DNA from: Ruminococcus sp.
Lineage (GTDB): Bacteria; Bacillota; Clostridia; Oscillospirales; Ruminococcaceae
Reading direction: 5' to 3'
DNA length: 64,000 nt
Assembly: GCA_017558505.1 (NCBI GenBank)
Contig: JAFYUM010000011.1
Span: forward strand, 13,439 to 77,438
Below the pieces are notes generated by a model. That model did not search any database. It worked only from the letters and a program-made list of their open reading frames with translations, and was not told where the DNA came from. Both the position numbers and the translations under genes were made by a program. Of this stretch, positions 29,311-45,730 are shown in pieces. How positions within the stretch are numbered: the first letter of the stretch is position 1; every line of letters begins with the position of its first letter.

Positions 29311-30191
29311 TATTCCACATCCTTTCCTAAATGATTTTCAATGGCAAGGAGAATGGCAACAATCACAATCATAATAAGTGAGAAAAGCACAGCCGCCGAT
29401 GACAGTTTCTGATAGTCCAGACTGTTGAAGGTGTTGTTCATGAAGTGCTGGAGCATATACATTTTATCGTAGGGATAATCACCTGTAAGGAGATAGACCT
29501 CACGGAAAATCTTGAATGAGTTGATAAGTGAGAGTATCAGCACGAAAAGGATTGTGGGGGAAAGATATCTCAATTTGATATGTACAAACTGATACCAGCC
29601 GCTTGCTCCCTCCAGTTTTGCAACCTCGATAATATCACGGGGAATAGAGGCAAGGGCAGACATAAAGAGTATCATATTATAACCCATGTTTTTCCACAGG
29701 AACATCACTATAATGATAGTTTGTCCGTGAGAGGATTTCATCCAGTCGATAGATCCTCCGCCGAATGTTTCGATAATCTGATTGAGAGTTCCGTTTGTAT
29801 GGAAAAGAACCTGCCATACAAGTACAACTGAGGCGGTGGGAACCATGAGCGGACTGAGAAAAAATGTTCTCACAACACTTTTTCCGGGAATGTCCCTTTC
29901 AAGAAGAACTGCCATCCATAGCGAAAGAATAACAGCAAGAGGAACCGATATAAGCGAAAATGAGGCTGTATTTGCAGCGGCTTTCCTGAATGCTATAGTT
30001 TCCATCAGCCTTTTATAGTTTTCAAGTCCTACGAAATCATGTATAATGGGATTGTTGATTACAGAGTAGTAAACAACAATGCCGAATGGTATCAGAAAAA
30101 ATATCAGAACGCCGATAAGACTTGGCATAACACATATATTGCTGAATATGCGCTCGCCCCTTCGGCCGCACTGGTCTTTTCGTTTTTTCAA
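29310..30191 (-). CDS. Carbohydrate (CUT1) ABC permease, MalF-like
   Basis: FVGLENY, RTFFLSP, WKNMGYNMILF, EVAKLEGAS EAA loop; TTG at 30191 lies 9 nt after AAGGAG. Confidence 0.9.
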   Translation of the reverse strand: MKKRKDQCGRRGERIFSNICVMPSLIGVLIFFLIPFGIVVYYSVINNPIIHDFVGLENYKRLMETIAFRKAAANTASFSLISVPLAVILSLWMAVLLERDIPGKSVVRTFFLSPLMVPTASVVLVWQVLFHTNGTLNQIIETFGGGSIDWMKSSHGQTIIIVMFLWKNMGYNMILFMSALASIPRDIIEVAKLEGASGWYQFVHIKLRYLSPTILFVLILSLINSFKIFREVYLLTGDYPYDKMYMLQHFMNNTFNSLDYQKLSSAAVLFSLIMIVIVAILLAIENHLGKDVE

Positions 30192-30558
30192 ATTAAACAA
30201 CTCCTTTTATGTACAGGGGAACCCACTTTTTCTCTTTAAATATCCCTCTATATATAAGTGTCTTAAAAAGCCAAAAAAAACAAAGACTTGATAAATTTTT
30301 ATTTTTTAATCAAAGCTGTATTGCCGGCTGGTTGTTGAAAATGAAAAAACGGAAATTTAAAAAACAGGGATTTGCCAGTTTATAGCTGTTTTTTACATCG
30401 GGTTTTCTTCCGGTATAAAGCTTGATCGGGTAATACTATTACGAGATGAAAATAAAACCTTATATATTATAGTGGTGGTTTTGTTAACTGCGGTTTACAA
30501 ATGCAAACTTTCTTTTCACAAATCGTACTACATATAATAATACGGTTGTTACAATATC

Positions 30559-30587
30559 ATGATATCATATTAAATCAGATTTGTCAA
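30559..30587 (-). promoter_or_regulatory. Probable sigmaA promoter of the hybrid ABC locus
   Basis: Minus strand TTGACA (30587-30582)-17-TATCAT (30564-30559) with TGn. Confidence 0.55.
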
Positions 30588-30852
30588 TAGTTTTTTTAAA
30601 ATAACCCAAAGTAATTCTACATAAAGATTATATAATACAAAAATGAAAGTTGTCTGATAATTTTCTTAAAAGTTTCTTATAATTTCAATATATCTCTGAA
30701 AATCTGTCTGATTAAAGAAAAAGCAGATGACCTGCATAGCTGCTTTTAAAAATGGGCTTTTGTAGTTGCTCTTTAGTTTTTGAAAATATAAGGCAAAATT
30801 GTAATGGCGCATTGCTTTAATTTGTTAATAGTGCCAAAATTTCAAAACCCCC

Positions 30853-30881
30853 TTGACATTCGCTTCTGTTTGTGATATAAT
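30853..30881 (+). promoter_or_regulatory. sigmaA promoter of the tRNA operon
   Basis: TTGACA-17-TATAAT with TGn. Confidence 0.85.
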
Positions 30882-30903
30882 AATTAACGTTGAAACACAG
30901 AAT

Positions 30904-30977
<74 letters not shown>

Positions 30978-31011
30978 TTTAAAAGCAGCTTTGGCTGCTG
31001 ATTTTATCTAT

Positions 31012-31085
31012 GCGCCTTTAACTCAGCTGGATAGAGTAACTGCCTTCTAAGCAGTAAGCCGCTGGTTCGAATCCAGCAAGGCGCG
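31012..31085 (+). tRNA. tRNA-Arg(TCT)
   Basis: Acceptor GCGCCTT/AAGGCGC; anticodon arm ACTGC-CT-TCT-AA-GCAGT; no encoded CCA. Confidence 0.95.
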
Positions 31086-31093
31086 CTATATAT

Positions 31094-31168
31094 GGTGGGT
31101 GTAGCTTAGCTGGTTAAAGCGTCGGATTGTGGTCCCGAAGATCGTGGGTTCGAATCCCATCTCCCACC
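31094..31168 (+). tRNA. tRNA-His(GTG)
   Basis: G-1 plus GTGGGTG acceptor, anticodon loop TT-GTG-GT, GGTTCGAATCC T arm, C discriminator. Confidence 0.92.
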
Positions 31169-31180
31169 CTCATGAAACAG

Positions 31181-31208
31181 ACACTTTCGATTTTCGAAAG
31201 TGTTTTTT
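31181..31208 (+). terminator. Terminator after the tRNA operon
   Basis: ACACTTTCGA-TTT-TCGAAAGTGT followed by T-run. Confidence 0.8.
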
Positions 31209-31299
31209 GCTTTTGGGATACTTTTTATGTCTGACTGTTCAGAGTATGCCTGATGGCTTTGTGCTGAATTATATTATTAAAACGGAGGTTGAACTGACA

Positions 31300-33111
31300 A
31301 TGATGAAAACTGACAGTAAACCGCAGAACAGACTTAATATACCTATATGGATATTATGCTTTTTGAGCCTGATTTTAGTTTTTATTGTAGAAACAGAAAA
31401 ATTCTTTCCGCTGGATTCTCCTATGTTAGGTCATGATGCAAGCTATCATTATTTAAGGGTTGACGCATTGGCAGAAAGGATAAAAAGCGGAAATATACTT
31501 TCTGGAGGAATAGATTATCTCTTTCTTGATGGTCTTGGATATGCAAGCTCGCTTGCTTATCCTGATGTGATGCTGTACATTCCGGCATTTATGAGAGCTG
31601 CAGGGTGCGGCATCGGAGAAAGCATGGCAATTTTTCTGATGGTGTGTAATACCTTGTTTCTTATATCATCATTCTGGTGTACATACAGAATTTCAAAGTC
31701 GCCTGTGTGTGCAGCTGTTGCCACGGTGATTTTCTCAACCTCTTTTTATAGAAGTGACAATTTGTACACACGATTTGCCCTTGGAGAGGTTCAGGCTTTT
31801 ATTTTCTGGCCCTTAATCATATATGGTCTTTATGATTTCATTTTTGAAGATTTTAAAAAGCCATATGTTTTAGGTCTGGGAATTGTAGGAATGCTTTTCA
31901 CACATACAATATCAACGGCTCTGGCGGTTATTATGTGTGTCTTTATATGCCTTATATATATAAAGCGAATTATTAAATCCCCTAAAAATATATTAAAGCT
32001 TGCAGTAACAGCAGTTTGTGTTCTTGCGGTTACTTCGTTTTATTGGATACCGCTTCTTGAGCTTATGAGTTCCTGTGAACTTACAGTAAAGCATCCTATA
32101 GATAAGGCTTCAAAGTATACAGTTGAATTTATGACATTATTTAAGGATGTAAGCATAGGATACGGCAATGCCGGTCTGGGCATATTGATTTTTGCAGTTT
32201 GCGGTATAAGAGTGTTTGTAAAGCCGCAGGGTAAGAAAGCTGATACATCGCAGGATGTGCTACGGAAAAGGGAACTTCTTAAATTTGCAGATGTCTGCCT
32301 GATTCTTGCATTTGTATTTGTATTCATGACTGTAAAAACTCCTGCCTGGAAACTGCTTGCACCGCTGCTTGATTTTATGCAGTTCCCATGGAGAATGTTT
32401 GCGGTAGTTACCCTGCTTATCTCAATTGCAGTTGCCATATACGCTCATCTGATTGCAACTACTTTCAGAAGTAAGATGCTTCTTCCGCTGGTTGCTTCAT
32501 CTGTATTCATTCTGAATGTTGCAGTACATATGCATAACGTAGGTGCAGCCAGTCACGTATTACTACCATATAATGATGATTACTTTACGGGAAATCCCCA
32601 GGCAACATATAGTATAGGATATGGCGAATGGCTTCCATGGAGCGCTAAAAACTCCATGGATACATTAAAGCAGAATACACGTAAGGTTACTTCGAATGAC
32701 GGAACGGAACTGAAATACGAAAAGAAAAGCGATTATCTTGTATTTTCGCCTGATAAAGCATATGAATATGTAGTTGTTCCTTATATATGGTATAAAGGCT
32801 ATGCTGCATACGATGAGGGCGGAAATGAATATACGACTTCAATTTCTGATATCGGATTTGTCAAGGTAGAGTTGAATGGAAGAGAAGCTGATGGGGATAT
32901 TCGTGTAGAATATCGCTTTACCCCATTGAGAAAGGTTTCTGTTGCAATAAGCATTGTAACATCTGTACTTGTGCTTGCCTATTTCGTTACAGCAAGGATT
33001 AGAAAAAATAAAAAAACTGATGATAAAATGAAAGAAAATAACATAGAAAATTCAGAAGACACAAAAGAGGAAAATATATCTGTTGAGATTCATCAGGCAG
33101 AGGAAATATAA
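31300..33111 (+). CDS. Polytopic membrane protein, GT-C-fold glycosyltransferase-like (YfhO/PTPS-related type)
   Basis: GHDASYHYLRV, RFALGEVQAFIF, QFPWRMF, many TM helices, extracellular C-terminal domain; GGAGG RBS before 31300. Confidence 0.7.
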   Translation: MMKTDSKPQNRLNIPIWILCFLSLILVFIVETEKFFPLDSPMLGHDASYHYLRVDALAERIKSGNILSGGIDYLFLDGLGYASSLAYPDVMLYIPAFMRAAGCGIGESMAIFLMVCNTLFLISSFWCTYRISKSPVCAAVATVIFSTSFYRSDNLYTRFALGEVQAFIFWPLIIYGLYDFIFEDFKKPYVLGLGIVGMLFTHTISTALAVIMCVFICLIYIKRIIKSPKNILKLAVTAVCVLAVTSFYWIPLLELMSSCELTVKHPIDKASKYTVEFMTLFKDVSIGYGNAGLGILIFAVCGIRVFVKPQGKKADTSQDVLRKRELLKFADVCLILAFVFVFMTVKTPAWKLLAPLLDFMQFPWRMFAVVTLLISIAVAIYAHLIATTFRSKMLLPLVASSVFILNVAVHMHNVGAASHVLLPYNDDYFTGNPQATYSIGYGEWLPWSAKNSMDTLKQNTRKVTSNDGTELKYEKKSDYLVFSPDKAYEYVVVPYIWYKGYAAYDEGGNEYTTSISDIGFVKVELNGREADGDIRVEYRFTPLRKVSVAISIVTSVLVLAYFVTARIRKNKKTDDKMKENNIENSEDTKEENISVEIHQAEEI

Positions 33112-33236
33112 ACAGGCGTGTCGCAATAATTTTGATGTTCCTGTGGCTATATTCTTTTTATAGAGAATTGAGAGCAGATTTATCAAGAGGTTTATATATC
33201 GTAAATATTATATAAAGTTTCGGAGTTTTTTATGGT

Positions 33237-33285
33237 ATGCCGAATTGATTGAGAAGTAAATTCTTGATTAATTCGGCATTTTTTG
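33237..33285 (+). terminator. Strong terminator insulating the rSAM cluster
   Basis: 19-bp stem ATGCCGAATTGATTGAGAA/TTCTTGATTAATTCGGCAT whose three mismatches are all G-U on the plus strand, followed by T-run. Confidence 0.8.
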
Positions 33286-33320
33286 TTTGCTCAATATTGT
33301 AAAAATAGAGTTAAAATACT

Positions 33321-33391
33321 GTTTACTCCCTTTTTTATATCGTTTACTCTCTGTTTGTTGTAAATATACGAATAAGATGATATCATATAAT
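33321..33391 (+). promoter_or_regulatory. Activator-dependent (LytTR-type) promoter of the RiPP operon
   Basis: GTTTACTC at 33321 and 33342 (21-bp period), 36 nt, then TATAAT at 33386-33391; no -35 consensus. Confidence 0.72.
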
Positions 33392-33453
33392 CACAGAATA
33401 AATGTCATACGGATTTCACAAGAAATACTAACTGAATGAAAATGGAGGATGAA

Positions 33454-34749
33454 ATGAATTTATTTGAAGAAAAAGTTGCGTTTGCAGGATATGTAAGAAT
33501 TTACAATAGAGAGAAACGTACTCTTATTGCCAGTACTGAAAATAACAAATGCATTATGGTGAGCAGGGAAATATCCGATATTTTTAAACAGGCCGAAAAA
33601 GAAAACCTTACTTTTGGTGAACTGTTTGATAGCGTTGAAGACGAAGCATCACGTGAACTTTTAGTTCATCTCAGTGAGAAACTTCAAAGTTTGGCAATGT
33701 GGAAGCATATTGAAGATGAGCTCGAAAAAATCCCGAGAAGTGAAGTGTCTATTGATATAACAAACAATTGTAATCTCAGATGTAAGCATTGTTGTATATC
33801 GGCAGGAGATAATAAAAGAGGTTGTGATTTAACTACAAATGAGCTTTTAGAGCTCGCGGACAGAATTCTTCTGTTAAATCCCGCGACAATTTCCGTTTCT
33901 GGAGGTGAGCCTTTAGTCAGAAAGGATTTTAGAGAGTTCACTGATAGATTAAGAAGCAAATATAAAGGTACACTTATACTTATGACAAATGCGGTTCTTA
34001 TTAATAACGATGAGATTGCTAAATATCTTACAGATAATTATGATGGATTTGATATAAGTCTTGATGGATATGATGAAGAGACATGTGCTATGATAAGAGG
34101 CGAAGGTGTATTTGAAAAAGTGCTCAACGCTGTAAAGCTTTTACAAAAATATAATGGAAAAATAAGTCTGTCAATGGTTAAGACGAAGAAAACAGCTGAT
34201 AACATTATAAAATTTTCAGAGCTTTGTGAAAAACTGGGTGTGAAATCTCTTGTAAGATGTTTTGAACCAATGGGCAGAGGAGAAAAAAATAAGGATTTGT
34301 TTGAAATTAAAGAGGATCATACATGCGCTTGCGGTACGGATTGGACAAGGGAAAAAGATGTGTTCGAAAAAAAGAAAATGTATACAATAGCTCCGAACAT
34401 TTTTTCTTGTCATGGCGCTAAAACAGAGTTTCAGATAGATCAGAAGGGTGATGTATTCCCGTGTCCTATGTTTATGTCAATAGAATACAAACTTTTTAAT
34501 ATACTTGATATTGAAAATCCTGAAGAATTTATATCCGAAAAAAAATACATGGAATCAGACGGATATAAGAACTTCATGAAGTTTATGCCTTATAATTGTG
34601 ATAATTGTAAGGGTTGTGATAAGCAACTGTTTTGTTTTAGTTGTGCAGCAACTGTAAGAAAATGCGTTGAGGAGAATGATTTCGAATACTTCTGCAATGA
34701 ATGTGGAAAGTATTACGATATGTATTGGGAGAATCATGGGACTGTTTAA
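33454..34749 (+). CDS. Radical SAM/SPASM peptide maturase 1 with N-terminal RRE-like extension
   Basis: CNLRCKHC, SGGEPL, MTNA, ISLDG, MIRG, C...GDVFPC...CxxCxxCx5CxxC...C; about 90-aa beta/helical N-terminal domain; GGAGG RBS before 33454. Confidence 0.9.
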   Translation: MNLFEEKVAFAGYVRIYNREKRTLIASTENNKCIMVSREISDIFKQAEKENLTFGELFDSVEDEASRELLVHLSEKLQSLAMWKHIEDELEKIPRSEVSIDITNNCNLRCKHCCISAGDNKRGCDLTTNELLELADRILLLNPATISVSGGEPLVRKDFREFTDRLRSKYKGTLILMTNAVLINNDEIAKYLTDNYDGFDISLDGYDEETCAMIRGEGVFEKVLNAVKLLQKYNGKISLSMVKTKKTADNIIKFSELCEKLGVKSLVRCFEPMGRGEKNKDLFEIKEDHTCACGTDWTREKDVFEKKKMYTIAPNIFSCHGAKTEFQIDQKGDVFPCPMFMSIEYKLFNILDIENPEEFISEKKYMESDGYKNFMKFMPYNCDNCKGCDKQLFCFSCAATVRKCVEENDFEYFCNECGKYYDMYWENHGTV

Positions 34750-35737
34750 TATATGGCTTACTGAAGCTTGTAATCTTAAATGTACATATTGCTATGAAAG
34801 TAACAAAAGCATGAAGTATATGCAGAAAGATACCATTGAAAGAACAATAGAATTTATCTGTAGAAAAAGTGTTGGTATGGATAGTTGTATTATAAATTTT
34901 CATGGTGGAGAGCCTTTACTTGCATTTGATAACATTTTGTATTTTGTTTCGGAATTTAATAAACGTGGAGTTAGTGCAGTATATTCACTTACTACAAATG
35001 GCGTCTTACTTGATGAAGAAAAGATAAAAAGGTTTTATGAAAACAAGATTTATCTTTCATTAAGTCTTGATGGCAACGCTGAGGTAAATGATAAATGTAG
35101 AATATCCTGTGACGGAAAAGGGACATATGAAAAGGTAGCAGTAAAAATTCCATTAATAATGAAATATTACCCTGAACTTCGAATCAGGATGACAGTTACA
35201 CCGGAAACTTCAATTCATTTATTTGATTCAGTAAAACACATAAGTCAATTAGGCGGAAAACTTATTATTGCTGTTCCAGACCTTTATGATAATAAATGGA
35301 CGAAGGAACTTATAAACAACGTTGAAAAACAAGTAATTGATTTGTATAAAGAATTTAAAGATAGTGATACGGAATTTCTGTTTTTTGAAAAGCTTGAGAA
35401 TTGCAAAAAAGGTAAATGCGATGGCGGAATTAATGAGTTCAACATAAGCATAGAGGGAAAGCTTTATCCTTGTTCGTTTGTTACGGGTAATGATGACTAT
35501 CTCATAGGTAATGTTGTTGATGATGTTGATGAAGCTTTATTATCAAAATTCAGTGCTGTTTATGGAAAATCAAATTACACATGCAGTGGATGTGGACGTG
35601 AAGAAATATGTACCGCTTCAAGATGTAAGTTTGTAAATGCAATGATGACCGGAGATCCTTTAAAAGTACATCCTGTTATTTGTACTTTTGAACATATGAT
35701 CAATAACATTTCAAGAAAAATTAAAAATCAAGTATAA
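34736..35737 (+). CDS. Radical SAM/SPASM maturase 2, no RRE
   Basis: CNLKCTYC at residues 12-19, FHGGEPLL, TTNG, LSLDG, CDGG...GKLYPC, CxxCx5Cx4C...C; overlaps the end of rSAM1. Confidence 0.9.
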   Translation: MGLFNIWLTEACNLKCTYCYESNKSMKYMQKDTIERTIEFICRKSVGMDSCIINFHGGEPLLAFDNILYFVSEFNKRGVSAVYSLTTNGVLLDEEKIKRFYENKIYLSLSLDGNAEVNDKCRISCDGKGTYEKVAVKIPLIMKYYPELRIRMTVTPETSIHLFDSVKHISQLGGKLIIAVPDLYDNKWTKELINNVEKQVIDLYKEFKDSDTEFLFFEKLENCKKGKCDGGINEFNISIEGKLYPCSFVTGNDDYLIGNVVDDVDEALLSKFSAVYGKSNYTCSGCGREEICTASRCKFVNAMMTGDPLKVHPVICTFEHMINNISRKIKNQV

Positions 35738-35766
35738 AAATAAGCGTTAAAAGGATAGGATAATCT

Positions 35767-35997
35767 ATGAAAGTGGAAAGAATCGGGAATGCATATTTTA
35801 ATGAATTTGAAGGTATGGCGCAGAGTTGTTGGAATGAATGTGCTGAATACCGTGGTAAAACATCGATGATAAATACGCTTATAAGGAATGCGGGATTTAA
35901 GGGCGACGGAACCGATAAAGAAAAAGAAATGCTGGAGAAGGCTTTTGGAAGTTATTGCTGCAAAGAACGATCTCCGAAAACCAGTATGTTCTGGTGA
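35767..35997 (+). CDS. Putative RiPP precursor 1 (76 aa)
   Basis: NEFEGMAQ-SCWNECAEYRGKTS...GFKGD...FGSYCCKE.SPKTSMFW; own RBS; paralogy with three neighbours. Confidence 0.85.
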   Translation: MKVERIGNAYFNEFEGMAQSCWNECAEYRGKTSMINTLIRNAGFKGDGTDKEKEMLEKAFGSYCCKERSPKTSMFW

Positions 35998-36019
35998 GTA
36001 AACACAAGGAGAATTCGCA

Positions 36020-36250
36020 ATGAAGATTGAAAAAATAGATGAAGTATATATAAATGAGTTTGATGGAGAAGCACAGGGGTGTTTTGCAGATTGTGCAGAA
36101 TATCGTGGAAAAACATCGGGCGTTTATAAACAGCTTTCTGTTTCCGGGTATTATGGTGATGGATCAGACAGGAACACACAGGAGATAATTAAAGTATTCG
36201 GTAGTTATTGTTATAAGGAGTACTCGCCAAAAACCTGTATGTACTGGTGA
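36020..36250 (+). CDS. Putative RiPP precursor 2 (76 aa)
   Basis: NEFDGEAQ-GCFADCAEYRGKTS...GYYGD...FGSYCYKE.SPKTCMYW; AAGGAG RBS. Confidence 0.85.
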   Translation: MKIEKIDEVYINEFDGEAQGCFADCAEYRGKTSGVYKQLSVSGYYGDGSDRNTQEIIKVFGSYCYKEYSPKTCMYW

Positions 36251-36283
36251 TTATAGATATTAAATATTAAAGGAGGTGATATC

Positions 36284-36523
36284 GTGAAGATTGAGAGAAT
36301 TGAAAATGGATTTGTAAACGAATTTGAGGGCGAGGCACAGAACTGCTGGGATGATTGTACAGAGTACAGAGGCAAGACATCCGGAATTAATTCTCTGATC
36401 AGACGTGCAGGTTATAAGGGCGACGCTTCAAGATCAGACCTTAATCAACTTGCAGAAATCAAAGATGTTTTTGGCTACTACTGCTACAGAGAAAAGACAC
36501 CCAAGACAAGTATTTACCTTTAA
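36284..36523 (+). CDS. Putative RiPP precursor 3 (79 aa, GTG start)
   Basis: NEFEGEAQ-NCWDDCTEYRGKTS...FGYYCYRE.TPKTSIYL; AAGGAGGT RBS. Confidence 0.85.
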   Translation: MKIERIENGFVNEFEGEAQNCWDDCTEYRGKTSGINSLIRRAGYKGDASRSDLNQLAEIKDVFGYYCYREKTPKTSIYL

Positions 36524-36562
36524 TGGTAGATAAAATATAAAAATCTTAAGGAGGATAAAATT

Positions 36563-36802
36563 ATGAAAATTGAGAAAATTGAAAATGGATTTGTAAACGA
36601 ATTTGAGGGCGAAGCACAGAGCTGCTGGGATGATTGTACAGAGTACAGAGGCAAGACATCCGGAATTAATTCTCTGATCAGACGTGCAGGTTATAAGGGC
36701 GACGCTTCAAGATCAGACCTTAATCATCTTGCAGAAATCAAAGATGTTTTTGGTTACTACTGCTACAGAGAAAAGACACCCAAGACATGTATTTATTGGT
36801 AA
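36563..36802 (+). CDS. Putative RiPP precursor 4 (79 aa)
   Basis: 74 of 79 residues identical to precursor 3; ends PKTCIYW; AAGGAGG RBS. Confidence 0.85.
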   Translation: MKIEKIENGFVNEFEGEAQSCWDDCTEYRGKTSGINSLIRRAGYKGDASRSDLNHLAEIKDVFGYYCYREKTPKTCIYW

Positions 36803-36840
36803 TCCATTAAGAATAGGAGATATCAGTACATTTTACGGCA

Positions 36841-36867
36841 TACTGCACAAAGTTTATTTGTGCAGTA
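36841..36867 (+). other. Stem-loop after the precursor array, no U-tract
   Basis: TACTGCACAA-AGTTTAT-TTGTGCAGTA. Confidence 0.6.
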
Positions 36868-36895
36868 CTGCTGTAATAAAGTACTTGTAAAAAAT

Positions 36896-37837
36896 ATGAA
36901 ATATAATATAGCTATAATCGACAGCAGTGTTGATTATTCTCTTATCTCTGAAAAAAGCAGGGATAAAATCGTCACATATAATATGGTAGAACCCGAAGGC
37001 AATATGAGTCATGCAGCTTATGTTATAGATACTTTGTTTAAATATAGCAATAATATAAATAAAATCTATTTATATGATGTTTTCGGTGATAATCCGCGTG
37101 CAAGCGGCAGAGCTGTAATCAATTCTCTTGAAAAAATCGCAACACAGGATGATGTGCGCCTTATACTCGTTTGTCTTACTTTGGCAAATAAAGAGAGATT
37201 TGAAGAAACAAAAGAGATATGCAATTTACTTGCTGCTCAAAACAAGGTTATTATAGCATCATATGCAAATCGTGGAACAGATACTGATAATCATTATCCT
37301 GCATGTTTCGAATGTACGATAGGTGTATATCAGGGGGCTTATGAAAAAGAACCGTTTTTTGGTAAAATATCTGATAAATCTGATTTGCCTGGAGATGCAT
37401 CTCCGGAGTTTATTAAAACAGGAGAAAATCAATATGCTATATTTGGCGGTACAAGTAAAGCTGTTCCTAAGCTTGCTGCTTATATAATAAATATGTTTGA
37501 GGAAGACAATATAAACATCGACAAAGTGCTGGAATATCTTGCTCGGAAGAGTAATGATGAAGATGATAATATTCTTGAACTTTTAAAAAGCAATTGCGAA
37601 GGTTCTGTAAAGAATGAAAACAAAGCACTTAACAGAGAACTCTTTCAAAAATACAAAAAATATAATGATATATCAGATGAATGTGATGATGCATCAATAA
37701 TGCAGCTCGGAAACAATGCGGGTGAATATGTTTCAGAGGTTTTAAATGAATATAAATCTGATATGACTCCCGATATGCTTATGTGTAGAGATTTTTACAC
37801 CGTAAAGTCTTTGAGCAAATTTGTTGACAGGGGCTGA
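36896..37837 (+). CDS. Cytoplasmic S8 (subtilisin-like) peptidase with C-terminal ACP-like extension (start uncertain, 36860 or 36896)
   Basis: IAIIDS (Asp), SHAAYV (His), ASYAN (oxyanion Asn), YPA, GGTSKAVP (Ser); no signal peptide. Confidence 0.8.
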   Translation: MKYNIAIIDSSVDYSLISEKSRDKIVTYNMVEPEGNMSHAAYVIDTLFKYSNNINKIYLYDVFGDNPRASGRAVINSLEKIATQDDVRLILVCLTLANKERFEETKEICNLLAAQNKVIIASYANRGTDTDNHYPACFECTIGVYQGAYEKEPFFGKISDKSDLPGDASPEFIKTGENQYAIFGGTSKAVPKLAAYIINMFEEDNINIDKVLEYLARKSNDEDDNILELLKSNCEGSVKNENKALNRELFQKYKKYNDISDECDDASIMQLGNNAGEYVSEVLNEYKSDMTPDMLMCRDFYTVKSLSKFVDRG

Positions 37838-37841
37838 AAAA

Positions 37842-39527
37842 ATGAATAAAAGTAAAAACAGAAGTTTTTTTACTAAACTCAAAAATGTAGAAAGAAAATA
37901 CCATCTTGATATTTTCTGGTGTATTTTGAAAAAATTCAAAAAATATTATTTCATAGCCATGGTTATTGCACTTCTGAAATCGGTAACAGGATACGCAGCT
38001 CCGCTTATAAATATCCTGATAATTGACCATGGTATCGGAAAAAAGAATATTAATTTGTTATTGCTTGCGGTTATGCTCATGATAGCATTATATGTGATAT
38101 GTGAGGTAATTGCTTATATTGATACAAAATTCAATATGTTTTTTCGATATAAAATCGAATTATTTGTAAAAAAGAAAGTAATATCATATTGTATATACAA
38201 CAGTTTTTCTGAAAATTCGTCTGGAGAATATGAAACATTAATAACAAGCGATTCAGAAAGAGTTGTTTCTCTTTCTTTGTCGCTTTTTTCAAGCATAGCT
38301 CTTAGTCTGTTTAATACCATAACATCATTGGTTGTACTTTTGAAAATACAGCCTCTGCTATCAATCCCGGCTGTTATTATGCAGGTTGTCATGGTTCTTA
38401 TTCGTCTTAAAACTTCAAATATAGAAGAGAAAAACGGTTCGATGGCAAGAGAAAGCTTTGTTAAGTTATGGTCTGTAATAACTGAATTGGTTAATAATAT
38501 AAGAAATATAGCTATTCTTGGTGCAGGTAGATATGCAGAAAAACGTTTTGAAAATGCGATGAAAAATGATTATAATGTAAGAAGCAGAAATAATTTGTTT
38601 AGTACTAAGATATGCAGTTTTGTTTCAGTTGGAATGTCTGCTTCAACTTGTATTCTTCTTGCATTAGGTGGTATATTAGTTATATTGGAAAAGATGACGG
38701 TGGGAAAACTTGTAACATTTAATCAGTATGCAGGTAATTTGTCAACACCGTTGCTTGAACTATTTACTATACCTACTGATATGAGTGCAGAGCTTGCATC
38801 TCTTGATCGCGTGGCACATATATTCAATTACAAATATGATAAGGATATAAATCAACTTAAACACGTTTCGAGTATTAAGGTAGATAAATTGTCATTTTCA
38901 TATGGTGAGAAGAAGATTCTTGAAAATGTAGTGGCTGAATTTGAAAAAGGAACCAAGTATTATATAAGGGGCAAAAGTGGTTCAGGTAAGTCTACATTTA
39001 TTAATCTTATATCAGGCAGGCAGTCATATGAAAGCGGTGAGATTTTTTATGACGGAATTTCTCTTAAAGATATTGATGTAGAAAGTCGAATGGAACTTAT
39101 ATCTTTTGTTTCACAGGATGCGGTATTATTTAACGATTCTATAGAAAATAATATAATACTTGATCTAGAATATAATAAAGAAAAATTAGAAAAAGTATGT
39201 AAATGTTGCAGAATTTATGATGATATAATAAATCTTCCGGACAGCTTTTCAACTATGGTTTCGGAGAATGGCATTAATTTTTCCGGTGGACAGAAAAGCA
39301 GACTTTGTTTAGCAAGAGCGTTGTATCAAGAGAAACCAATAATTATTATAGATGAAGTAACGGCAGGTCTTGATAGTGACACCGAAAGTGAACTCCGTGA
39401 CAATCTTGTTAATGAATTATCGGACAAAATTACGTTGATAATTACGCATAGCAATAATTTTGTTATGTTGAATTCTGTAATTTATTACCTGAATAAAAAT
39501 CATCTCAATGTAAAGGAGAATACATAA
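37842..39527 (+). CDS. ABC exporter (TMD+NBD) without C39 peptidase domain
   Basis: 6-TM N-terminus, GKSGSGKST, FSGGQ, IIIIDE. Confidence 0.9.
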   Translation: MNKSKNRSFFTKLKNVERKYHLDIFWCILKKFKKYYFIAMVIALLKSVTGYAAPLINILIIDHGIGKKNINLLLLAVMLMIALYVICEVIAYIDTKFNMFFRYKIELFVKKKVISYCIYNSFSENSSGEYETLITSDSERVVSLSLSLFSSIALSLFNTITSLVVLLKIQPLLSIPAVIMQVVMVLIRLKTSNIEEKNGSMARESFVKLWSVITELVNNIRNIAILGAGRYAEKRFENAMKNDYNVRSRNNLFSTKICSFVSVGMSASTCILLALGGILVILEKMTVGKLVTFNQYAGNLSTPLLELFTIPTDMSAELASLDRVAHIFNYKYDKDINQLKHVSSIKVDKLSFSYGEKKILENVVAEFEKGTKYYIRGKSGSGKSTFINLISGRQSYESGEIFYDGISLKDIDVESRMELISFVSQDAVLFNDSIENNIILDLEYNKEKLEKVCKCCRIYDDIINLPDSFSTMVSENGINFSGGQKSRLCLARALYQEKPIIIIDEVTAGLDSDTESELRDNLVNELSDKITLIITHSNNFVMLNSVIYYLNKNHLNVKENT

Positions 39528-41900
39528 ATGTTCAAATTAGCCTACAGATACATGAAAAGCAACATAAAAAGCAGTATCAGAGCAGTGTTTGGAATTGCTT
39601 TTTCGATAATGCTGATGTTTAGTCTTGTGCAGATAAGCGGCTATATTATGGATAGTTTTAAAGAACTTGTCAGTACAGGAATGCGTCGTGACTTCACAGT
39701 GTATAACATAAGTGGTGAAGAAACAATTGAAATTCATCATAAACTTACAGAATCCCCGGTTACAGATAAACAAAAGATTATGTCTATGATCTGGGTAGGT
39801 TCTGTTTATGAAACAGAACTTGAAGAATATAAAGTGCTTGGAGTTTCGGGAGATATTGATTATTTTAAAGATACCAGAATGATAAGTAATTCTCTACCAA
39901 CTGGCAACAATGAAATATGCATAGAAAAAAGTTATGCTGACAGAAAAAATCTAAAAGCAGGTGATGAAATATCACTTAATATATTCTTCTTTAATGAATT
40001 GAGCGGTGAAAGTGCAGAGAAGACATTTGATTTTACAATAAGCAGTATTATTGATGATCTTGTTGATGATGGAACGTATTTTTTTACAAGTCTTCCCTGT
40101 GCAGTAAACATTATTAAAGAAAGTGGCATAAGCAGCGATAATCTTTCTAACTCAATTGCTTTTGAAACAATCGAGGGCGATTATGATGTTGAAAAGACAG
40201 TTGATGCAGAATATCTGATTAAAGATATATTAGCGACAAAAAATCCTGAGAAAGCAGAAACTTTTTTTAAGGAATGTATCATAAATAATGATCAGAAATC
40301 TATGAATTATGACGAAAAAGGTACATTTACTTCGGTTTCCTTCGGAGTGCTTGCGATTTCTGTGATTATTGCGTTATGTATGATTATTTTTGTTTATAAT
40401 TCTCTTAATATAAGTCTTATTCAGAAACTGGATAATCTTGCTGTTATGAGATGTATAGGAATGAATAACCGACAGCTTGCACAAATGGTGCTTGCAGAGG
40501 CTATAATTCTTACTAATATTTCATTTGTTGCAGGTGTGGTAGCTGGTAATTTGCTGAATATGCTGGTGGCAGAAAAAATTGTCGGAACGCTTATACAGGG
40601 TGGAGCAGATGTGAGTATTTCCCAAAACCCAATTATATATTTAACAGTGTATATACTTGCAATGCTTTCTGTTCTTATTGCTTGTGTGCGTCTTATATTG
40701 AGATTTTATAAAATAAAGCCTATTAACCTTTCTAAATTTGGAAGCGGGAAGGAAATAAAGAGCAATTTTTCCAAGGGTGGATTAAGTGGAAAAAGATATT
40801 TCTATGGTTTTGCTACAAGAAATATAAAGCGTAATTTTTCTAAAAGTATCACACAGATTGTAACAGTTTCTTTGAGCTATCTCCTCTGTTTTGTAATTTG
40901 TAATACATTTCTTACTGTAAGTACAGGTTCATCCAAAAGTCTTGCTGATATATGTGATTATTCGTTAAAGGCAGATATTGTTCTCAGTCAGAGTTGCTTT
41001 ACTGAAGTTGATGTGGATGTTTTGAAAGATAAATACAAGATTGATACTATTTATACACAATCAGATTTAATGAATGAAGTTGAATGTAATGTTAACGATA
41101 ATTCAGTTCAGCCTATTGTATATAGTAATAATCTTGCAAGTGTACTTGCAAAAAACCTGAAGCTTGATTATAATAGTGAAAAGCCTTTTGCGGTACTTAT
41201 CGGTGAAGGATGCTCTGATAAAAAGGATATAAGTGTTAAGGTAAATGATAAGGAACACATAATTAAGCTTAATGGTTCATATGATGATGTTTCTGATAGC
41301 TTGCAAAGTGTACTTCGTTCAATTGGAACATATCTTCTCATGAATGAGAAAGCTGCTTCTGAAATTGGTTGTAAAACAGATACATTTTCGTCTGTTTTAC
41401 TTGAAACAAATGAAAAAATCACAATCGAGTCAATTAATGAAGAATTTGAAGGTATTGAGTTGGTTGTTGAAGATATGAACGAAGGTAAAAAACAGAGTGC
41501 ACAGCAGCTTCTTGGAATAGTAATGCTTGCGATTTATATTGTAGCTGCAACTATCTTATTAAGCTTTATGATAATCAATAATACCATAAGAGAAAACGCT
41601 GTTACAAGAAAGCGTGAATTTGGAATTATGTGTGCTATTGGTATGAAACGAAAAAGTCTTTGTAAAATATGCTGTTGGGAAAATGTAATACTCAACGTTA
41701 TATCATGTGTTGCAGGCACAGTTTTGTCATTGCCGATAAATATATATATTACTATGACGCTTCATAACAATATACGTGTTTCTGCGACAGCTTACGTAGT
41801 TGTTATTGCGGTATTTACAACTGTAACTGCGTTTTTCTCATATTTATTCATGAAGAAATATTCGAACAGTTCCATTGTTGATATGATTAAGATTGATTAA
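39528..41900 (+). CDS. FtsX/MacB-type ABC permease with two FtsX domains
   Basis: LAVMRCIGMNNRQL and REFGIMCAIGMKRKSL FtsX motifs, two large extracellular domains. Confidence 0.85.
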   Translation: MFKLAYRYMKSNIKSSIRAVFGIAFSIMLMFSLVQISGYIMDSFKELVSTGMRRDFTVYNISGEETIEIHHKLTESPVTDKQKIMSMIWVGSVYETELEEYKVLGVSGDIDYFKDTRMISNSLPTGNNEICIEKSYADRKNLKAGDEISLNIFFFNELSGESAEKTFDFTISSIIDDLVDDGTYFFTSLPCAVNIIKESGISSDNLSNSIAFETIEGDYDVEKTVDAEYLIKDILATKNPEKAETFFKECIINNDQKSMNYDEKGTFTSVSFGVLAISVIIALCMIIFVYNSLNISLIQKLDNLAVMRCIGMNNRQLAQMVLAEAIILTNISFVAGVVAGNLLNMLVAEKIVGTLIQGGADVSISQNPIIYLTVYILAMLSVLIACVRLILRFYKIKPINLSKFGSGKEIKSNFSKGGLSGKRYFYGFATRNIKRNFSKSITQIVTVSLSYLLCFVICNTFLTVSTGSSKSLADICDYSLKADIVLSQSCFTEVDVDVLKDKYKIDTIYTQSDLMNEVECNVNDNSVQPIVYSNNLASVLAKNLKLDYNSEKPFAVLIGEGCSDKKDISVKVNDKEHIIKLNGSYDDVSDSLQSVLRSIGTYLLMNEKAASEIGCKTDTFSSVLLETNEKITIESINEEFEGIELVVEDMNEGKKQSAQQLLGIVMLAIYIVAATILLSFMIINNTIRENAVTRKREFGIMCAIGMKRKSLCKICCWENVILNVISCVAGTVLSLPINIYITMTLHNNIRVSATAYVVVIAVFTTVTAFFSYLFMKKYSNSSIVDMIKID

Positions 41901-41916
41901 TTCAGGAGGATAGATT

Positions 41917-42585
41917 ATGTCAGTAATTACAGTGAAAAATCTCAATAAATATTATAAAACAGGAAATGAAAGCTATCATGCATTAAAAAACATTAATTTT
42001 GAGGTTGGTGAGGGTGAATTTGTAGTAATCCTTGGCCAGAGTGGCTCTGGTAAGAGTACTTTGCTTAATATAATAGGCGGTCTTGATGACTATGATTCGG
42101 GTGATGTATGTCTCAATGCTATGAATTATAAGGATACAGATGATATCACGATGTCAAATTTCAGATGCAGTACAATAGGGTTTGTATTCCAGTCATACAA
42201 TCTTATACCAGTTCTTAATGTGTATGAAAATATAGTTTTTCCTGTAAACATAAGTAATAAAAAAGTAGATGAGGAATATATCAGTCAGCTTATGACAAAA
42301 CTTGGTATAGCGGACAAGAGAAAATCATTTCCATCCATGCTGTCAGGTGGTCAGCAGCAGAGGGTAGCGATTGCCAGAGCCCTTGCGAATAAGCCGAAAA
42401 TCATTTTAGCTGATGAGCCTACAGGAAATCTTGATACAATTACAGGAAATGATGTTTTACAGATATTGCTTGATGGTGTTCATACCTATGGTCAGACTCT
42501 GGTTATGATAACACATAATCCAAGTATTGCTGAATATGCTGATCGTGTGATAAGAATTGAGAATGGAGTAATTGTGCAGCAATAA
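41917..42585 (+). CDS. LolD/MacB-type ABC ATP-binding protein
   Basis: GQSGSGKST, IGFVFQSYNLI, LSGGQQQRVAIARAL, ILADEPTGNLD. Confidence 0.93.
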   Translation: MSVITVKNLNKYYKTGNESYHALKNINFEVGEGEFVVILGQSGSGKSTLLNIIGGLDDYDSGDVCLNAMNYKDTDDITMSNFRCSTIGFVFQSYNLIPVLNVYENIVFPVNISNKKVDEEYISQLMTKLGIADKRKSFPSMLSGGQQQRVAIARALANKPKIILADEPTGNLDTITGNDVLQILLDGVHTYGQTLVMITHNPSIAEYADRVIRIENGVIVQQ

Positions 42586-42623
42586 AAGTGTGATTGCTTT
42601 TTGGATGAAAGGAAATGTGTTGT

Positions 42624-43064
42624 ATGCAGATAGTGGAAAATCAAAATTTATATTTTGATAATGTTCTTTCATATGTTTCTGGTATGGATAATACGCAGAC
42701 TATGGGGCTTGTAAATCATATCTTGAAGAATCTTGAAAGTATAGGACTTGAAGTGAGAGAAAAAGTTATGTTCACCTATTCTGATTCGGAAACAGAATTT
42801 CTTATTCCTTTGAAAAATGAAAAAACGTATGAAAACAGTGGGTATAGAATTAAACCAAAATTCAAGATGATAAATGCTGTGAAAATCAGATTTGAAGGGG
42901 ATTTTGGCGACATTGATATAGCGTTGAAAGCGTTGGAAAAGTATATATCTGAAAAAAAGTACAGGGTGATTTCACGGCCATATTATGTAGTTGTAAGAAG
43001 TAATGTGAATTCAAACAGTGGGATTTGGGATATATATATCAGTATTGACGGTAATATATTTTAG
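42624..43064 (+). CDS. GyrI-like/DUF5085-type small-molecule-binding protein
   Basis: About 146 aa, beta-alpha-beta-beta pattern, AVKIRFEG...LEKYISEKKY...PYYVV...WDIYISIDGNIF. Confidence 0.55.
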   Translation: MQIVENQNLYFDNVLSYVSGMDNTQTMGLVNHILKNLESIGLEVREKVMFTYSDSETEFLIPLKNEKTYENSGYRIKPKFKMINAVKIRFEGDFGDIDIALKALEKYISEKKYRVISRPYYVVVRSNVNSNSGIWDIYISIDGNIF

Positions 43065-43077
43065 TTTTTTGTAAAGT

Positions 43078-43240
43078 TATTGCTCCACCAATAAAACCTT
43101 GCTAAAAAAGACGAATACAGAAAGATAATTTATCAAGGAAGAAAAACGTAGAAATAAATCTTCATTTCAAGTTTTTCTAACGTAGAGAAATTTTCTTTGT
43201 GTCTGGTGTTTGATGGTAAGGGTTAGTTGGTGGAGCAATA
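43078..43240. repeat. 163-bp element bounded by perfect 14-bp inverted repeats
   Basis: TATTGCTCCACCAA (43078-43091) and TTGGTGGAGCAATA (43227-43240). Confidence 0.6.
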
Positions 43241-43305
43241 TTTATAGGGATTTTAATATTTCCCTTATGACTCGATTGTATATAGAAAATTACAGCATGA
43301 AAGCG

Positions 43306-43341
43306 AAAAACCTTCTTAAACATGATGTTTTAAGAAGGTTT
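43306..43341 (-). terminator. Probable terminator of the micro-ORF transcript
   Basis: Perfect 13-bp stem AAACCTTCTTAAA/TTTAAGAAGGTTT, ending in U5 on the minus strand. Confidence 0.65.
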
Positions 43342-43366
43342 AATTATATCAATTTCCAAAAAACAA

Positions 43367-43395
43367 TTGACAATTGGCTCGAAATGTTGTATAAT
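43367..43395 (+). promoter_or_regulatory. Consensus sigmaA promoter of the LytTR/HK pair
   Basis: TTGACA-17-TATAAT. Confidence 0.78.
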
Positions 43396-43418
43396 AAAAT
43401 ACGAAAAACATTTAATGT

Positions 43419-43460
43419 TTAATACCAGAGTGAATTTAACCATTCTACTAATTTTGACAT
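43419..43460 (-). CDS. 13-aa micro-peptide MSKLVEWLNSLWY (candidate signalling peptide)
   Basis: GGAGG (43472-43468) 7 nt before ATG; own promoter upstream and terminator downstream. Confidence 0.62.
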   Translation of the reverse strand: MSKLVEWLNSLWY

Positions 43461-43535
43461 TTTACTTCCTCCATTTTGTTTAATTATAGTAATATAGAAC
43501 TTTAGAAATGATTTTAACACGTGTTTATTAGCATG

Positions 43536-43606
43536 ATTATATAATAACTCATTCGGAGAAATTATGCCACAAAAGTGGAGCGAAAGGATATGTTTTTTGA
43601 GTAAAC
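43536..43606 (-). promoter_or_regulatory. LytTR-type promoter of the micro-peptide
   Basis: GTTTACTC (43606-43599), N13, TTTCGCTC (43585-43578), N36, TATAAT (43541-43536); same spacing as at 33321-33391. Confidence 0.65.
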
Positions 43607-43645
43607 GGGAAATAAAAATGATTTTGGAATTTATTTGGAGGAAAA

Positions 43646-44359
43646 ATGAAAATAGCAATATGTGATGATCAAAAGATTATGCGCGAACTTCTGAAAACAC
43701 AATTGGAAAAATACGCTCATAAGAAAAAATTGTGTTTTGTTTATAATGAATACGATAACGGGTTTGAGATGATTAAAAATGCCATAGATAATGATCTGAT
43801 TTTTATGGATTATCAAATGGACAAGATAGATGGGATACAAACCGCTAAAGAATTAAGAAAAAAGAAAATTGAAACGCCTATTATATTTCTTACAAGTTTT
43901 CCAGACGTTGTTTTCGATGTTTTTGAAGTAAAAGCATATCGTTTTTTGACAAAACCAATTAGCGAACAACAATTAACCAATGCGCTTGATTCACTTATTG
44001 AAGAATTTGCAGAAGAAAACTTTCTTGTCATAAAAACCGATGATGGAATAAAAAGAATAAATATCAATGATATAATATGTGCAGAAGCAGTCGATAAGTA
44101 CTGTTATATAAGTACGACCAGTGGCACAGTTTTATATAAAAAGACATTATCTGTTTTAGAAGAACAATTGCCATCAAATTTGTTTTTTCGTTCACACAGA
44201 ACATATCTTGTAGGTTATAGTCATATTCTGTCTCATACTAATACGGAAATCTTACTTGACAGTAAAGAAAAAGCGTTGATAAGTAAAACGAAAGCTTCGG
44301 CTTTTAAAAAAAATTTTTTAGAATATATAAAGAATTACAGTATGAGAGGGCGAAGTTAA
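43646..44359 (+). CDS. LytTR-family (AgrA-like) response regulator
   Basis: IAICDD, LIFMD, FLTS, AYRFLTKP, FFRSHRTYLV; GGAGG RBS. Confidence 0.93.
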   Translation: MKIAICDDQKIMRELLKTQLEKYAHKKKLCFVYNEYDNGFEMIKNAIDNDLIFMDYQMDKIDGIQTAKELRKKKIETPIIFLTSFPDVVFDVFEVKAYRFLTKPISEQQLTNALDSLIEEFAEENFLVIKTDDGIKRININDIICAEAVDKYCYISTTSGTVLYKKTLSVLEEQLPSNLFFRSHRTYLVGYSHILSHTNTEILLDSKEKALISKTKASAFKKNFLEYIKNYSMRGRS

Positions 44360-44360
44360 G

Positions 44361-45668
44361 ATGGTAGCGGGAATTATTGACGGTTTATTGTGCTTTCTGA
44401 TTGATTTTCTTTTTGTGAATTTTATTTCAGAAATGTTTTCTTTTAAAGTTGATTGGTGTAAAACTTCAGTAATACTTGTTCTATATACTTCATTTTCAGA
44501 ATTTATTTACCATATAAGCTCGCCTGAATTGCCAGTTGCATTCAAAGTATTGATAATGCTTTTTATTCCGCTGCGTACTTTTATTGTATGCTTAATTATA
44601 TTCAAAAAATTCGACTGGAATATACTCTATTTTACGTTGATGCACATTGTATTGTCCCAGATTCCTGATTCAATGATTGTAATTATTGCTCCGGATATAA
44701 GTGAATTTTTAAGAAATATTCTTGTGCCGCTTGTTATAATAATTTCACTTTTTTTAATCTGGCTTTTAATAAAAAACAGAAACAGATTCAATATGTTTCG
44801 TGACAGTTATAATAAAATCAACTGGCTAACCAGAATGATATTGTTGTTTTCAGTGTGGATATTTACATTGTACCTTACAGTTGTACTTGATCCGGAAGAA
44901 AGACCATTTTCTGTATTTATAAGACGAATGCTGACTTTCCCAATGTTTATAATAATGGGCATTTTAGTAGCATTTATCGCATCAGTTTCAGTTTCAGATA
45001 AGAAAAATAACGAAACAGCACAAATTCTTGCAAATCAGATTGACGATCAGGTAAGATACTATGAAAAATTAATCAAGATAAATGATGATATCCGAGGGTT
45101 CAGACATGATTTCAAAAACCATCTTATATGTCTGAGAAGCTTGCTTAACAGTGGACTGACCTCTCAGGCGATTGAATACCTTGATGATATAGAGCATATA
45201 TCATCCGTAACAACAGATAAATACAAAACAGGAAACATTATTGTCGATTCACTTCTTGATGATAAATCAGACAAGGCAGCTACTGTTTCGGCAACAATAG
45301 AATTCAGTGGATTTGTACCGACTATAGGAATAAGCAATGCGGATATATGTATAATACTGTCGAACGCTTTGGATAATGCTATTGAAGCTTGTGAAAGAAA
45401 CGGCGGAGGTATCATTAATATTAAATCTGATTTCAGACAGGGATATTTCTTTCTTGAAATATCAAATCCTGTACCTGTTGATGTCAAGATACAAAACACG
45501 CAGCGCTTAACAACGTCAAAAAGAGATAAAAATATTCATGGTTTCGGAATGCTTAATATATATAAAACGGCTGAAAAATATAACGGTAATTCAAAAGCTA
45601 CAGCTGAAAACGGTGTATTTACGCTTAATGTGGAATTGCAGCTTTCTGACGAATTTTCATCAATATGA
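44361..45668 (+). CDS. AgrC/ComD-like (HPK10) GHKL membrane histidine kinase
   Basis: 6-7 TM sensor, FRHDFKNHL H-box, ILSNALDNAIEAC, TTSK...HGFGMLNI. Confidence 0.92.
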   Translation: MVAGIIDGLLCFLIDFLFVNFISEMFSFKVDWCKTSVILVLYTSFSEFIYHISSPELPVAFKVLIMLFIPLRTFIVCLIIFKKFDWNILYFTLMHIVLSQIPDSMIVIIAPDISEFLRNILVPLVIIISLFLIWLLIKNRNRFNMFRDSYNKINWLTRMILLFSVWIFTLYLTVVLDPEERPFSVFIRRMLTFPMFIIMGILVAFIASVSVSDKKNNETAQILANQIDDQVRYYEKLIKINDDIRGFRHDFKNHLICLRSLLNSGLTSQAIEYLDDIEHISSVTTDKYKTGNIIVDSLLDDKSDKAATVSATIEFSGFVPTIGISNADICIILSNALDNAIEACERNGGGIINIKSDFRQGYFFLEISNPVPVDVKIQNTQRLTTSKRDKNIHGFGMLNIYKTAEKYNGNSKATAENGVFTLNVELQLSDEFSSI

Positions 45669-45730
45669 TAGGAACTTCGAAAAACTCTGTAAATTGTGAT
45701 AAAAACGTTAGATAGGAGTGTCCTGAAATG

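Follow-up and report, generated by a model that had tools for sequence, protein, structure and literature searches.

The 64,000-nucleotide (nt) stretch of DNA from a rumen Ruminococcus sp. analyzed here (contig JAFYUM010000011.1, positions 13,439 to 77,438; hereafter the window, whose numbering is used throughout) contains at 36896..37837, on the + strand, a gene for a protein of 313 amino acids (aa) in which a minimal serine protease of the subtilisin (S8) type is followed by a C-terminal tail predicted to have the fold of acyl carrier proteins (ACP) and peptidyl carrier proteins (PCP), and in which the serine that defines such carriers is missing. From sequence comparisons and structural models, we consider it probable on balance that the gene product is the dedicated cytoplasmic leader peptidase of a cluster for peptides made on the ribosome and modified after translation (RiPPs) that has two radical S-adenosylmethionine (rSAM) enzymes, and that the tail is a non-catalytic adaptor. 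The tail probably links leader-peptide cutting to the adjoining ATP-binding cassette (ABC) exporter.

The coding frame was established from the open reading frame (ORF) and its translation (ATG 36896, stop TGA 37835-37837), and the N-terminal sequence MKYNIAIIDS... is common to the window protein and seven close homologues. A database entry marked as 100% identical, P0001, has a mismatch to the window translation at residue 12 (Ile against Val). Residues 1-218 (36896..37549, +) constitute the minimal cytoplasmic, QhpE-like S8 domain, as delimited by NCBIfam matches, family conservation, and AlphaFold and Foldseek results. By itself, the window protein matched the Pfam S8 model (PF00082) at 14.6 bits and E 0.021, under the gathering cut-off of 21.8, and 79 of 91 relatives matched the same model at E <= 0.01. 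Residues 5-218 matched the NCBIfam QhpE model (NF049966) at E 1.2e-11, with a score of 44.4 bits that lies below the curated cut-off of 165, and the same model was matched by 90 of the 91 family members; the protease is QhpE-like, yet it is no QhpE equivalog. We observed that a profile of the 91 sequences matched solved intracellular subtilisins at E 4e-34, and that the full-length AlphaFold model built on the 91-relative alignment, with a predicted local distance difference test score (pLDDT) of 93.4 and a predicted template modeling score (pTM) of 0.92, retrieved subtilisins through Foldseek at E 7e-11.

A preliminary description of this DNA, made from its letters alone, had called the protein an S8 peptidase without a signal peptide, and both points are borne out. 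The catalytic set is intact: D9 (36920-36922), H39 (37010-37012), the oxyanion residue N125 (37268-37270) and S187 (37454-37456), all on the + strand and assigned from subtilisin alignment and family conservation, align with the subtilisin motifs IDTG, NGHGT, AGNE and GTSMA, respectively. Across the 91 sequences, H39 and S187 never vary, and D9 and N125 hardly do. The catalytic Asp is already residue 9, within beta strand 1 of the model, which leaves no space for a signal peptide or a propeptide; the enzyme is therefore taken to be cytoplasmic and made in active form.

An acidic linker with a net charge of -4 (residues 219-240; 37550..37615, +) joins the protease to the tail. It contains one short helix (residues 227-232) and is the lowest-confidence region of the model, with a pLDDT of 67 over residues 231-240. 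The tail itself, residues 241-313 (37616..37834, +), is a four-helix ACP/PCP-like domain by AlphaFold, Foldseek, profile searches and hhalign, with helices at 243-254, 268-286, 292-300 (as two short turns) and 303-312. A tail-only model of residues 241-313, built from seven sequences, has the order helix, long loop, long helix, short helix, helix, and the four helices recur in the full-length model with pLDDT values of 92-97. The tail thus does model as the four-helix ACP fold that had been proposed for it. We also asked whether the tail could be a RiPP recognition element (RRE), a winged helix of the PqqD type, and rejected this, since both models are all-helical with ACP topology and contain no strand of 3 or more residues. 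When the tail model was used as a Foldseek query, ~43 of the 50 best PDB matches were ACP or PCP carrier proteins, with target-normalized TM-scores of 0.42-0.66, mostly >0.5, in stand-alone carrier chains; every E-value was 0.34 or worse.

Sequence significance for the tail was reached only at the level of family profiles, after enlargement of the family. The window tail by itself gave nothing relevant in Pfam and NCBIfam searches at E-values up to 10, TIGR04069 included, and a small profile of 7 tail sequences gave a marginal match to the ACP 2lki (E 0.024), with an unrelated esterase scoring better. A profile of 60 tail sequences, including that of the window, matched 120 distinct PDB sequences at E <= 1. 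All except one of the 60 PDB matches listed for this profile were named carriers or unnamed chains of ACP size, the best being 2lki (6.6e-7), the ACP 2l4b (3.4e-6) and the aminoacyl carrier protein 4h2s (9.3e-6), and the matches span profile positions 4-85, which is the whole domain. By hhalign, the tail profile aligned with four true ACPs at 96.4% probability and E 1.2e-9, and with seven TIGR04069 proteins from other Clostridia at 97.4% and E 1.3e-11, over 87 gap-free columns. Two residues after helix II are common to the tail and the TIGR04069 proteins and are absent from the true ACPs; by these comparisons, true ACPs are slightly more distant from the tail than the stand-alone TIGR04069 proteins are. 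The preliminary description had stated that such stand-alone ACP-related proteins occur in clostridial rSAM cassettes; they do (PMC4573289, PMC10731318), and they are the nearest relatives of the tail by profile. It had also aligned the last ~75 aa with ACP by eye, and the 2 AlphaFold models, the Foldseek matches, the tail profile and the hhalign comparisons together show a likeness that exceeds chance. On this combination of models and profiles, we conclude that the tail is an ACP/PCP-fold domain homologous to carrier proteins.

The missing phosphopantetheine serine, also noticed beforehand, proved to be missing well beyond the window. The sequence LGNN (residues 271-274; 37706..37717, +) occupies the site of LGxDS in ACPs, as seen in hidden Markov model (HMM) alignments and in column counts over the 60 tails, and in 2 such alignments the ACP serine falls on G272 or on N273 of the window protein. 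The distance from the conserved LG to the aromatic residue that closes helix II is 14 residues in the window and 17 in AcpP; because the window is three residues shorter in this interval, the xDS segment is effectively deleted. The nearest serine, S267, pairs with S27 of AcpP rather than with S36, and it is not conserved. Over the 60 family tails the serine column contains P (13), S (7), R (6), K (5), I (5), E (4) and others, and none of the 60 has a (D/H)S-hydrophobic motif there. The seven TIGR04069 sequences (from loci L006-L010, L012 and L015; a further member lies at L016 8135-8419, - strand) have, at the site that corresponds to it, A, A, P, P, P, P and T, as counted by hand from the conserved aromatic residue. 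Because neither the 60 tails nor the TIGR04069 proteins have the serine motif, loss of carrier chemistry is a family trait and not a local mutation. With no serine to receive phosphopantetheine, the tail should be unable to act as a thiotemplate carrier, and we have rejected true carrier function for the window protein on the grounds of G272/N273 at the site, the shortened segment and the motif's absence from the 60 tails. By extension, the TIGR04069 name "acyl carrier-related" may be misleading about chemistry. Within the TIGR04069 set, the four proteins that score above the 70-bit cut-off and the weaker one from L012 have no serine at the carrier site (four Pro, one Thr), and the remaining 2 have Ala there and Ser one residue earlier.

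The architecture is widespread. An exhaustive profile search returned 2436 representatives at E <= 1e-3 and 414 at E <= 1e-10, each representing a cluster at 50% identity. A tail-only HMM found the tail in at least 107 of the best 155 representatives, where it is retained at full length with its fold-defining positions conserved, and protease plus tail occur together in at least 100 clusters. The family is large and essentially unannotated: because the Pfam PP-binding model detects the tail in only 1 of 91 members (E 3.7e-6), leaving the window tail unmatched, routine annotation is blind to this domain. When the 91 full-length members were scanned one by one, 11 matched PRK07081 (ACP), 7 matched the AmcB ACP model and 5 matched TIGR04069, the best of these last at E 1.1e-5.

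The evidence that ties the tail to export comes from gene order. Directly downstream of the protease gene lies an ABC exporter gene (37842..39527, +) whose product contains ABC_membrane (residues 44-311) and ABC_tran (residues 367-515) domains. Its likely initiator is ATG 37842, 4 nt past the protease stop, with the Shine-Dalgarno sequence AGGGG (37830-37834) located inside the last two protease codons; the longest ORF begins at TTG 37821. As stated in the preliminary description, the exporter has no C39 domain: Pfam shows only ABC_membrane and ABC_tran, and bacteriocin-ABC models align only from about position 139-141 onward. A locus search with the 7-sequence alignment gave 6 loci. The order rSAM1, rSAM2, precursor(s), S8 protease with tail, ABC exporter is found in the window and in 8 further loci, from Ruminococcus albus and other Ruminococcus, Roseburia, Eubacterium, Eubacteriaceae and NCBI genome AP023367.1. 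In all of these loci the protease stop either overlaps the exporter start or lies no more than 5 nt from it (ATGA, TAATG, or an 11-nt overlap). An FtsX permease gene and then an ATPase gene follow the exporter, L005 having these two reversed.

Two proteins, P0058 (884 aa; L004 2737-5391) and P0142 (whose sequence ends at 683 aa), join the S8 domain, the ACP-like domain and the ABC exporter in a single polypeptide, and they represent 2 separate clusters at 50% identity. In P0058 the tail ends ~5 residues before the segment that aligns with residue 8 of the window exporter, and its locus context (rSAM, rSAM, small ORF) is like that of the window. In L025-L027 the tail is a separate ORF between protease and exporter (tail-HMM E 4e-8 to 4e-14); these ORFs may be true splits or may result from frameshift errors. 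In the aggregate, a tail, fused or split, is followed directly by an exporter in 12 of 12 loci, and the coupled arrangement occurs in none of 5 tail-less relatives. The tail-less L024 and L028/L029 clusters have no ABC_membrane exporter. The L028/L029 cluster (GCA_026646565.1, 4639-14723) contains a tail-less S8 gene together with three rSAM genes, FtsX and ATPase genes, and a LytTR/histidine-kinase pair, and it offers a ready-made comparison for what the tail does.

Upstream of the protease gene are the genes for the maturases and for the presumed substrates. Two overlapping radical SAM/SPASM genes (33436..35737, +; 33436-34749 and about 34733-35737), recognized by family models and kept in this order in 9 loci, encode one StsB-like enzyme of the sactipeptide type and one PapB-like enzyme of the ranthipeptide type. 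They are followed by four tandem precursor genes, P1-P4 (35767..36802, +), identified as ORFs and by comparison with orthologous precursors. The P1-P4 leaders read MKIEKIxxxFVNEF(E/D)GxAQ and are followed by (S/G/N)CxxxC. We compared the precursors of the window (35767-36802) with those of L002 (9823-10056), L019-L023 and L005 (7634-7807). The orthologous precursors all keep a Gln two residues ahead of the first Cys (EAQ↓SC, AQAQ↓SC, ETQ↓GC, KGQ↓GC), and also an N-terminal CxxxC and a C-terminal YCYR(D/E/K)xT..(Y/L)W, around a core middle that is highly variable, from ~15 to 45 residues. A more distant locus of the fused type reads EMQKIS-WC at the leader/core boundary. The cut site had been expected at AQ↓x; the Gln is indeed conserved, AQ itself is not general across the relatives, and from this pattern we would place the cut after the Gln.

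These observations suggest the following order of events. While the leader is bound, probably through the RRE that belongs to the first rSAM enzyme, the two rSAM enzymes would introduce cross-links into the Cys-containing core; the protease would next cut past the conserved Gln, two residues ahead of the first Cys; and the core would be handed directly to the C39-less ABC exporter, whose gene comes next and is translationally coupled. Most likely, in an assignment that we make only tentatively, the serine-less ACP-fold tail anchors the protease to the exporter at its N-terminal, cytoplasmic side. Alternatively or additionally, the tail might hold the leader or the maturase-peptide complex, a role that we regard as possible and somewhat unlikely. 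Under either role, protease and exporter would form a two-piece, serine-protease version of a peptidase-containing ABC transporter (PCAT), and the two-domain model is predicted to be rigid (pTM 0.92). Intracellular leader removal by an enzyme with a built-in binding module, as the preliminary description had suggested, would fit the exporter fusions and the conserved translational coupling.

Several points weigh against an adaptor role directed at the exporter. An ABC_membrane exporter is present in the tail-less L030, L031 and L032 clusters, which shows that an S8-exporter system can do without the tail. The exporters in these 3 clusters are uncoupled from the protease, being 350 nt downstream, upstream of the protease gene, or separated from it by a regulator gene; strict co-occurrence of tail and ABC_membrane exporter is refuted by them, and what survives is that a tail has an exporter immediately downstream. 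The loci are few and not phylogenetically independent, and tail and exporter may be associated through descent from one conserved operon, not through function. The fusion proteins stem from 2 metagenome assemblies, in which an assembly or frameshift artefact is possible. Also, a stand-alone TIGR04069 relative occurs in the L016 cassette, which consists only of a precursor, an rSAM enzyme, TIGR04066 and this ACP-related protein; because L016 has neither protease nor exporter, the partner common to all systems would have to be the peptide or the rSAM enzyme. Finally, the confident intramolecular packing of the model could equally mean that the tail extends the substrate-binding surface of the protease.

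The last 2 of these points are also the main support for an alternative in which the tail is a peptide-recognition module, one that binds either the leader or the complex of maturase and peptide and offers the scissile bond to the active site of the S8 domain, as an ACP-fold alternative to the RRE and without direct contact to the exporter. The firm packing of the tail on the protease in the model, as if to extend the substrate cleft, would suit such a role, and a minimal S8 domain of 218 aa may need added specificity. However, the leaders (net charge -1 to -4) and the tail (-4, with -3 in the helix II stretch) carry like charges, which disfavors an electrostatic match; tail-less relatives adjoin homologous precursors (P4-like in L024 and L031); and both the exporter fusions and the invariant position directly before the exporter would be left unexplained. 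We therefore rate this alternative as rather unlikely, if still deserving of attention.

Improbable, in our estimation, is that the tail is the remnant of a carrier protein from a "cut-and-modify" ancestor comprising S8-DUF1611 plus ACP, and that its role is now only to stabilize the minimal protease or to regulate it, as by holding the enzyme inactive as long as the substrate is immature. QhpE-like S8 domains fused to a DUF1611 P-loop domain do occur among the relatives (P0045, P0050, P0078, P0084, P0129 and P0138, ~600-630 aa), as does, in the CcpM cassette of L017, an ACP-related gene 4 nt upstream of the gene for a 550-aa S8 protein, and the unconstrained serine column is also consistent with a remnant. 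Related systems combine an S8-DUF1611 fusion with an ACP encoded separately. Yet the retention of the full-length tail, with conserved fold positions, in at least 107 of the best 155 representatives argues for selection on function, and a purely structural role leaves the exporter fusions unexplained. TIGR04066 and the C-terminus of the L017 S8 protein were considered as DUF1611 relatives and discarded, as Pfam gave no such match. One further fusion, P0149 (678 aa), joins a QhpE-like S8 domain to a radical SAM domain. It is very improbable that the tail is a real carrier that uses a non-canonical residue (S267 in the window, or the Ser at the canonical column in P0004-P0006) for the transfer of an acyl or aminoacyl group onto the newly formed N-terminus: Ser is present at the aligned column in 7 of 60 tails, P0005 has LDS, and the one Pfam PP-binding match is in keeping with the idea, but the site in the window is G or N with the three residues of the xDS segment gone, S267 aligns with the wrong AcpP serine and is unconserved, none of the 60 tails has the motif, and genes for an adenylating, loading or transferase enzyme are absent from the cluster, as is one for a phosphopantetheinyl transferase.

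The adaptor-bearing protease can be compared with several known systems. QhpE removes the leader of QhpC in the qhp operon, for maturation of quinohemoprotein amine dehydrogenase, and it resembles the window protease in two ways: both are small S8 enzymes of the cytoplasm that lack a signal peptide, and both have genes next to those for an ABC transporter and for a thioether-forming maturase of the radical SAM/SPASM type; the window protease and exporter would work like QhpE plus QhpF. In contrast, QhpE has ~219 aa and no C-terminal domain, the qhpA, qhpB and qhpC genes are absent from the window cluster, where the QhpD model is matched at only 113 bits against a cut-off of 453, and the substrates here are four bacteriocin-like precursors and not an enzyme subunit. 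In PCATs, a C39 cysteine-protease domain is fused to the exporter. The layout is similar, in that a cytoplasmic leader protease is N-terminal to, or encoded directly upstream of, the exporter, and the natural S8-tail-exporter fusions mimic it; the differences are that the protease is a serine S8 enzyme, which in the window is a separate polypeptide, that an ACP-fold domain lies between protease and transporter, and that the leader ends in Gln rather than Gly-Gly. The Bacillus intracellular subtilisins (7xr8 and 7y6m) are likewise cytoplasmic and gave the best S8 sequence matches among solved structures (E 4e-34 and 1e-32), whereas they are proteases of general action, bear an inhibitory extension at the N-terminus, and lack both a carrier-like tail and a RiPP context.

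With the PF00550 carriers (AcpP and PDB entries 2lki, 2l4b and 4h2s), the tail shares the four-helix topology, the length and family-level homology over the whole domain; it differs from them by the absent serine/DSL motif, by an xDS segment shorter by three residues, and by the lack of any loading or transfer enzyme in the cluster. TIGR04069 (ocin_ACP_rel) is the closest profile match to the tail and similarly shows no conservation of serine at the carrier site (A or P in 6 of 7). Its members, however, are stand-alone proteins of 86-100 aa, whereas the window domain is fused to the C-terminus of a protease and remains unmatched by the TIGR04069 model (curated cut-off 70 bits) even at E 10. 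By their defining scores or features, the window protein is outside QhpE, TIGR04069 and PF00550 alike. The window cluster also has no NCBIfam match to TIGR04065 or TIGR04066, genuine cassettes for comparison being L016 and L017, and it has no CcpM equivalog, since rSAM2 scores 118 bits against a cut-off of 500. The rSAM peptide cassettes of TIGR04069 proteins often include a subtilase and an ABC exporter, and in CcpM-type clusters the ACP-related protein and the subtilase are separate genes to which no function has been assigned (PMC4573289, PMC10731318).

What we describe is thus a minimal cytoplasmic subtilisin that carries a carrier fold without carrier chemistry and is tied to an exporter by gene order and sometimes by fusion. 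To our knowledge, leader removal is the least understood step for products of the sactipeptide and ranthipeptide types, and it often blocks their heterologous production. The words QhpE, carrier protein, sactipeptide and ranthipeptide are all absent from a review on leader proteases of RiPPs published in 2023 (PMC10885120), and we found no paper on the fused S8-ACP-like architecture or on S8-ACP-like-ABC fusions in a search outside which most subscription journals lay. If the tail is a docking or recognition element, it would explain how C39-less exporters get processed cargo, would suggest a function for the long-orphan TIGR04069 proteins, and would offer a portable protease-exporter pair for making such peptides. 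If it is a structural remnant only, a useful correction of annotation is still gained. A broader proposal, which we hold as doubtful, is that serine-less ACP-fold modules, fused or stand-alone as in TIGR04069, are a general, hitherto unrecognized adaptor domain of radical-SAM peptide pathways that hands the modified precursor from maturase to QhpE-type protease to C39-less exporter. Were this true, there would be an S8-based counterpart of the PCATs and a second fold for leader or partner recognition beside the RRE.

The cluster as a whole is tightly packed, in the order two rSAM/SPASM genes, four precursor genes, protease gene, ABC exporter gene, FtsX-type permease and ATPase genes, and a LytTR/histidine-kinase pair. 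It occupies a low-GC island of the window (~32% on average, with ~42% around it). Over 30000-46000 the GC content is 31-36%, that of the flanks is 40-47%, and the GC skew is strongly positive, features that are compatible with horizontal acquisition. The nearest public locus is in a metagenome-assembled genome of Ruminococcus, with a protein identity of 82%.

Between the last precursor gene and the protease gene, minimum free energy folding predicted an RNA hairpin on the + strand, with a core stem at 36833..36876 and an extended stem at 36821-36889. The hairpin has a minimum free energy of -32.6 kcal/mol (z -6.6), and none of 200 shuffled sequences gave an equally stable fold. The 3' end of the hairpin lies 7 nt ahead of the protease ATG and has no clean T-run, and the protease gene has no obvious Shine-Dalgarno sequence. 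An excess of precursor mRNA over enzyme mRNA is common to many RiPP operons. Probably, the hairpin is an attenuator or a transcript-stabilizing element that keeps precursor mRNA above enzyme mRNA.

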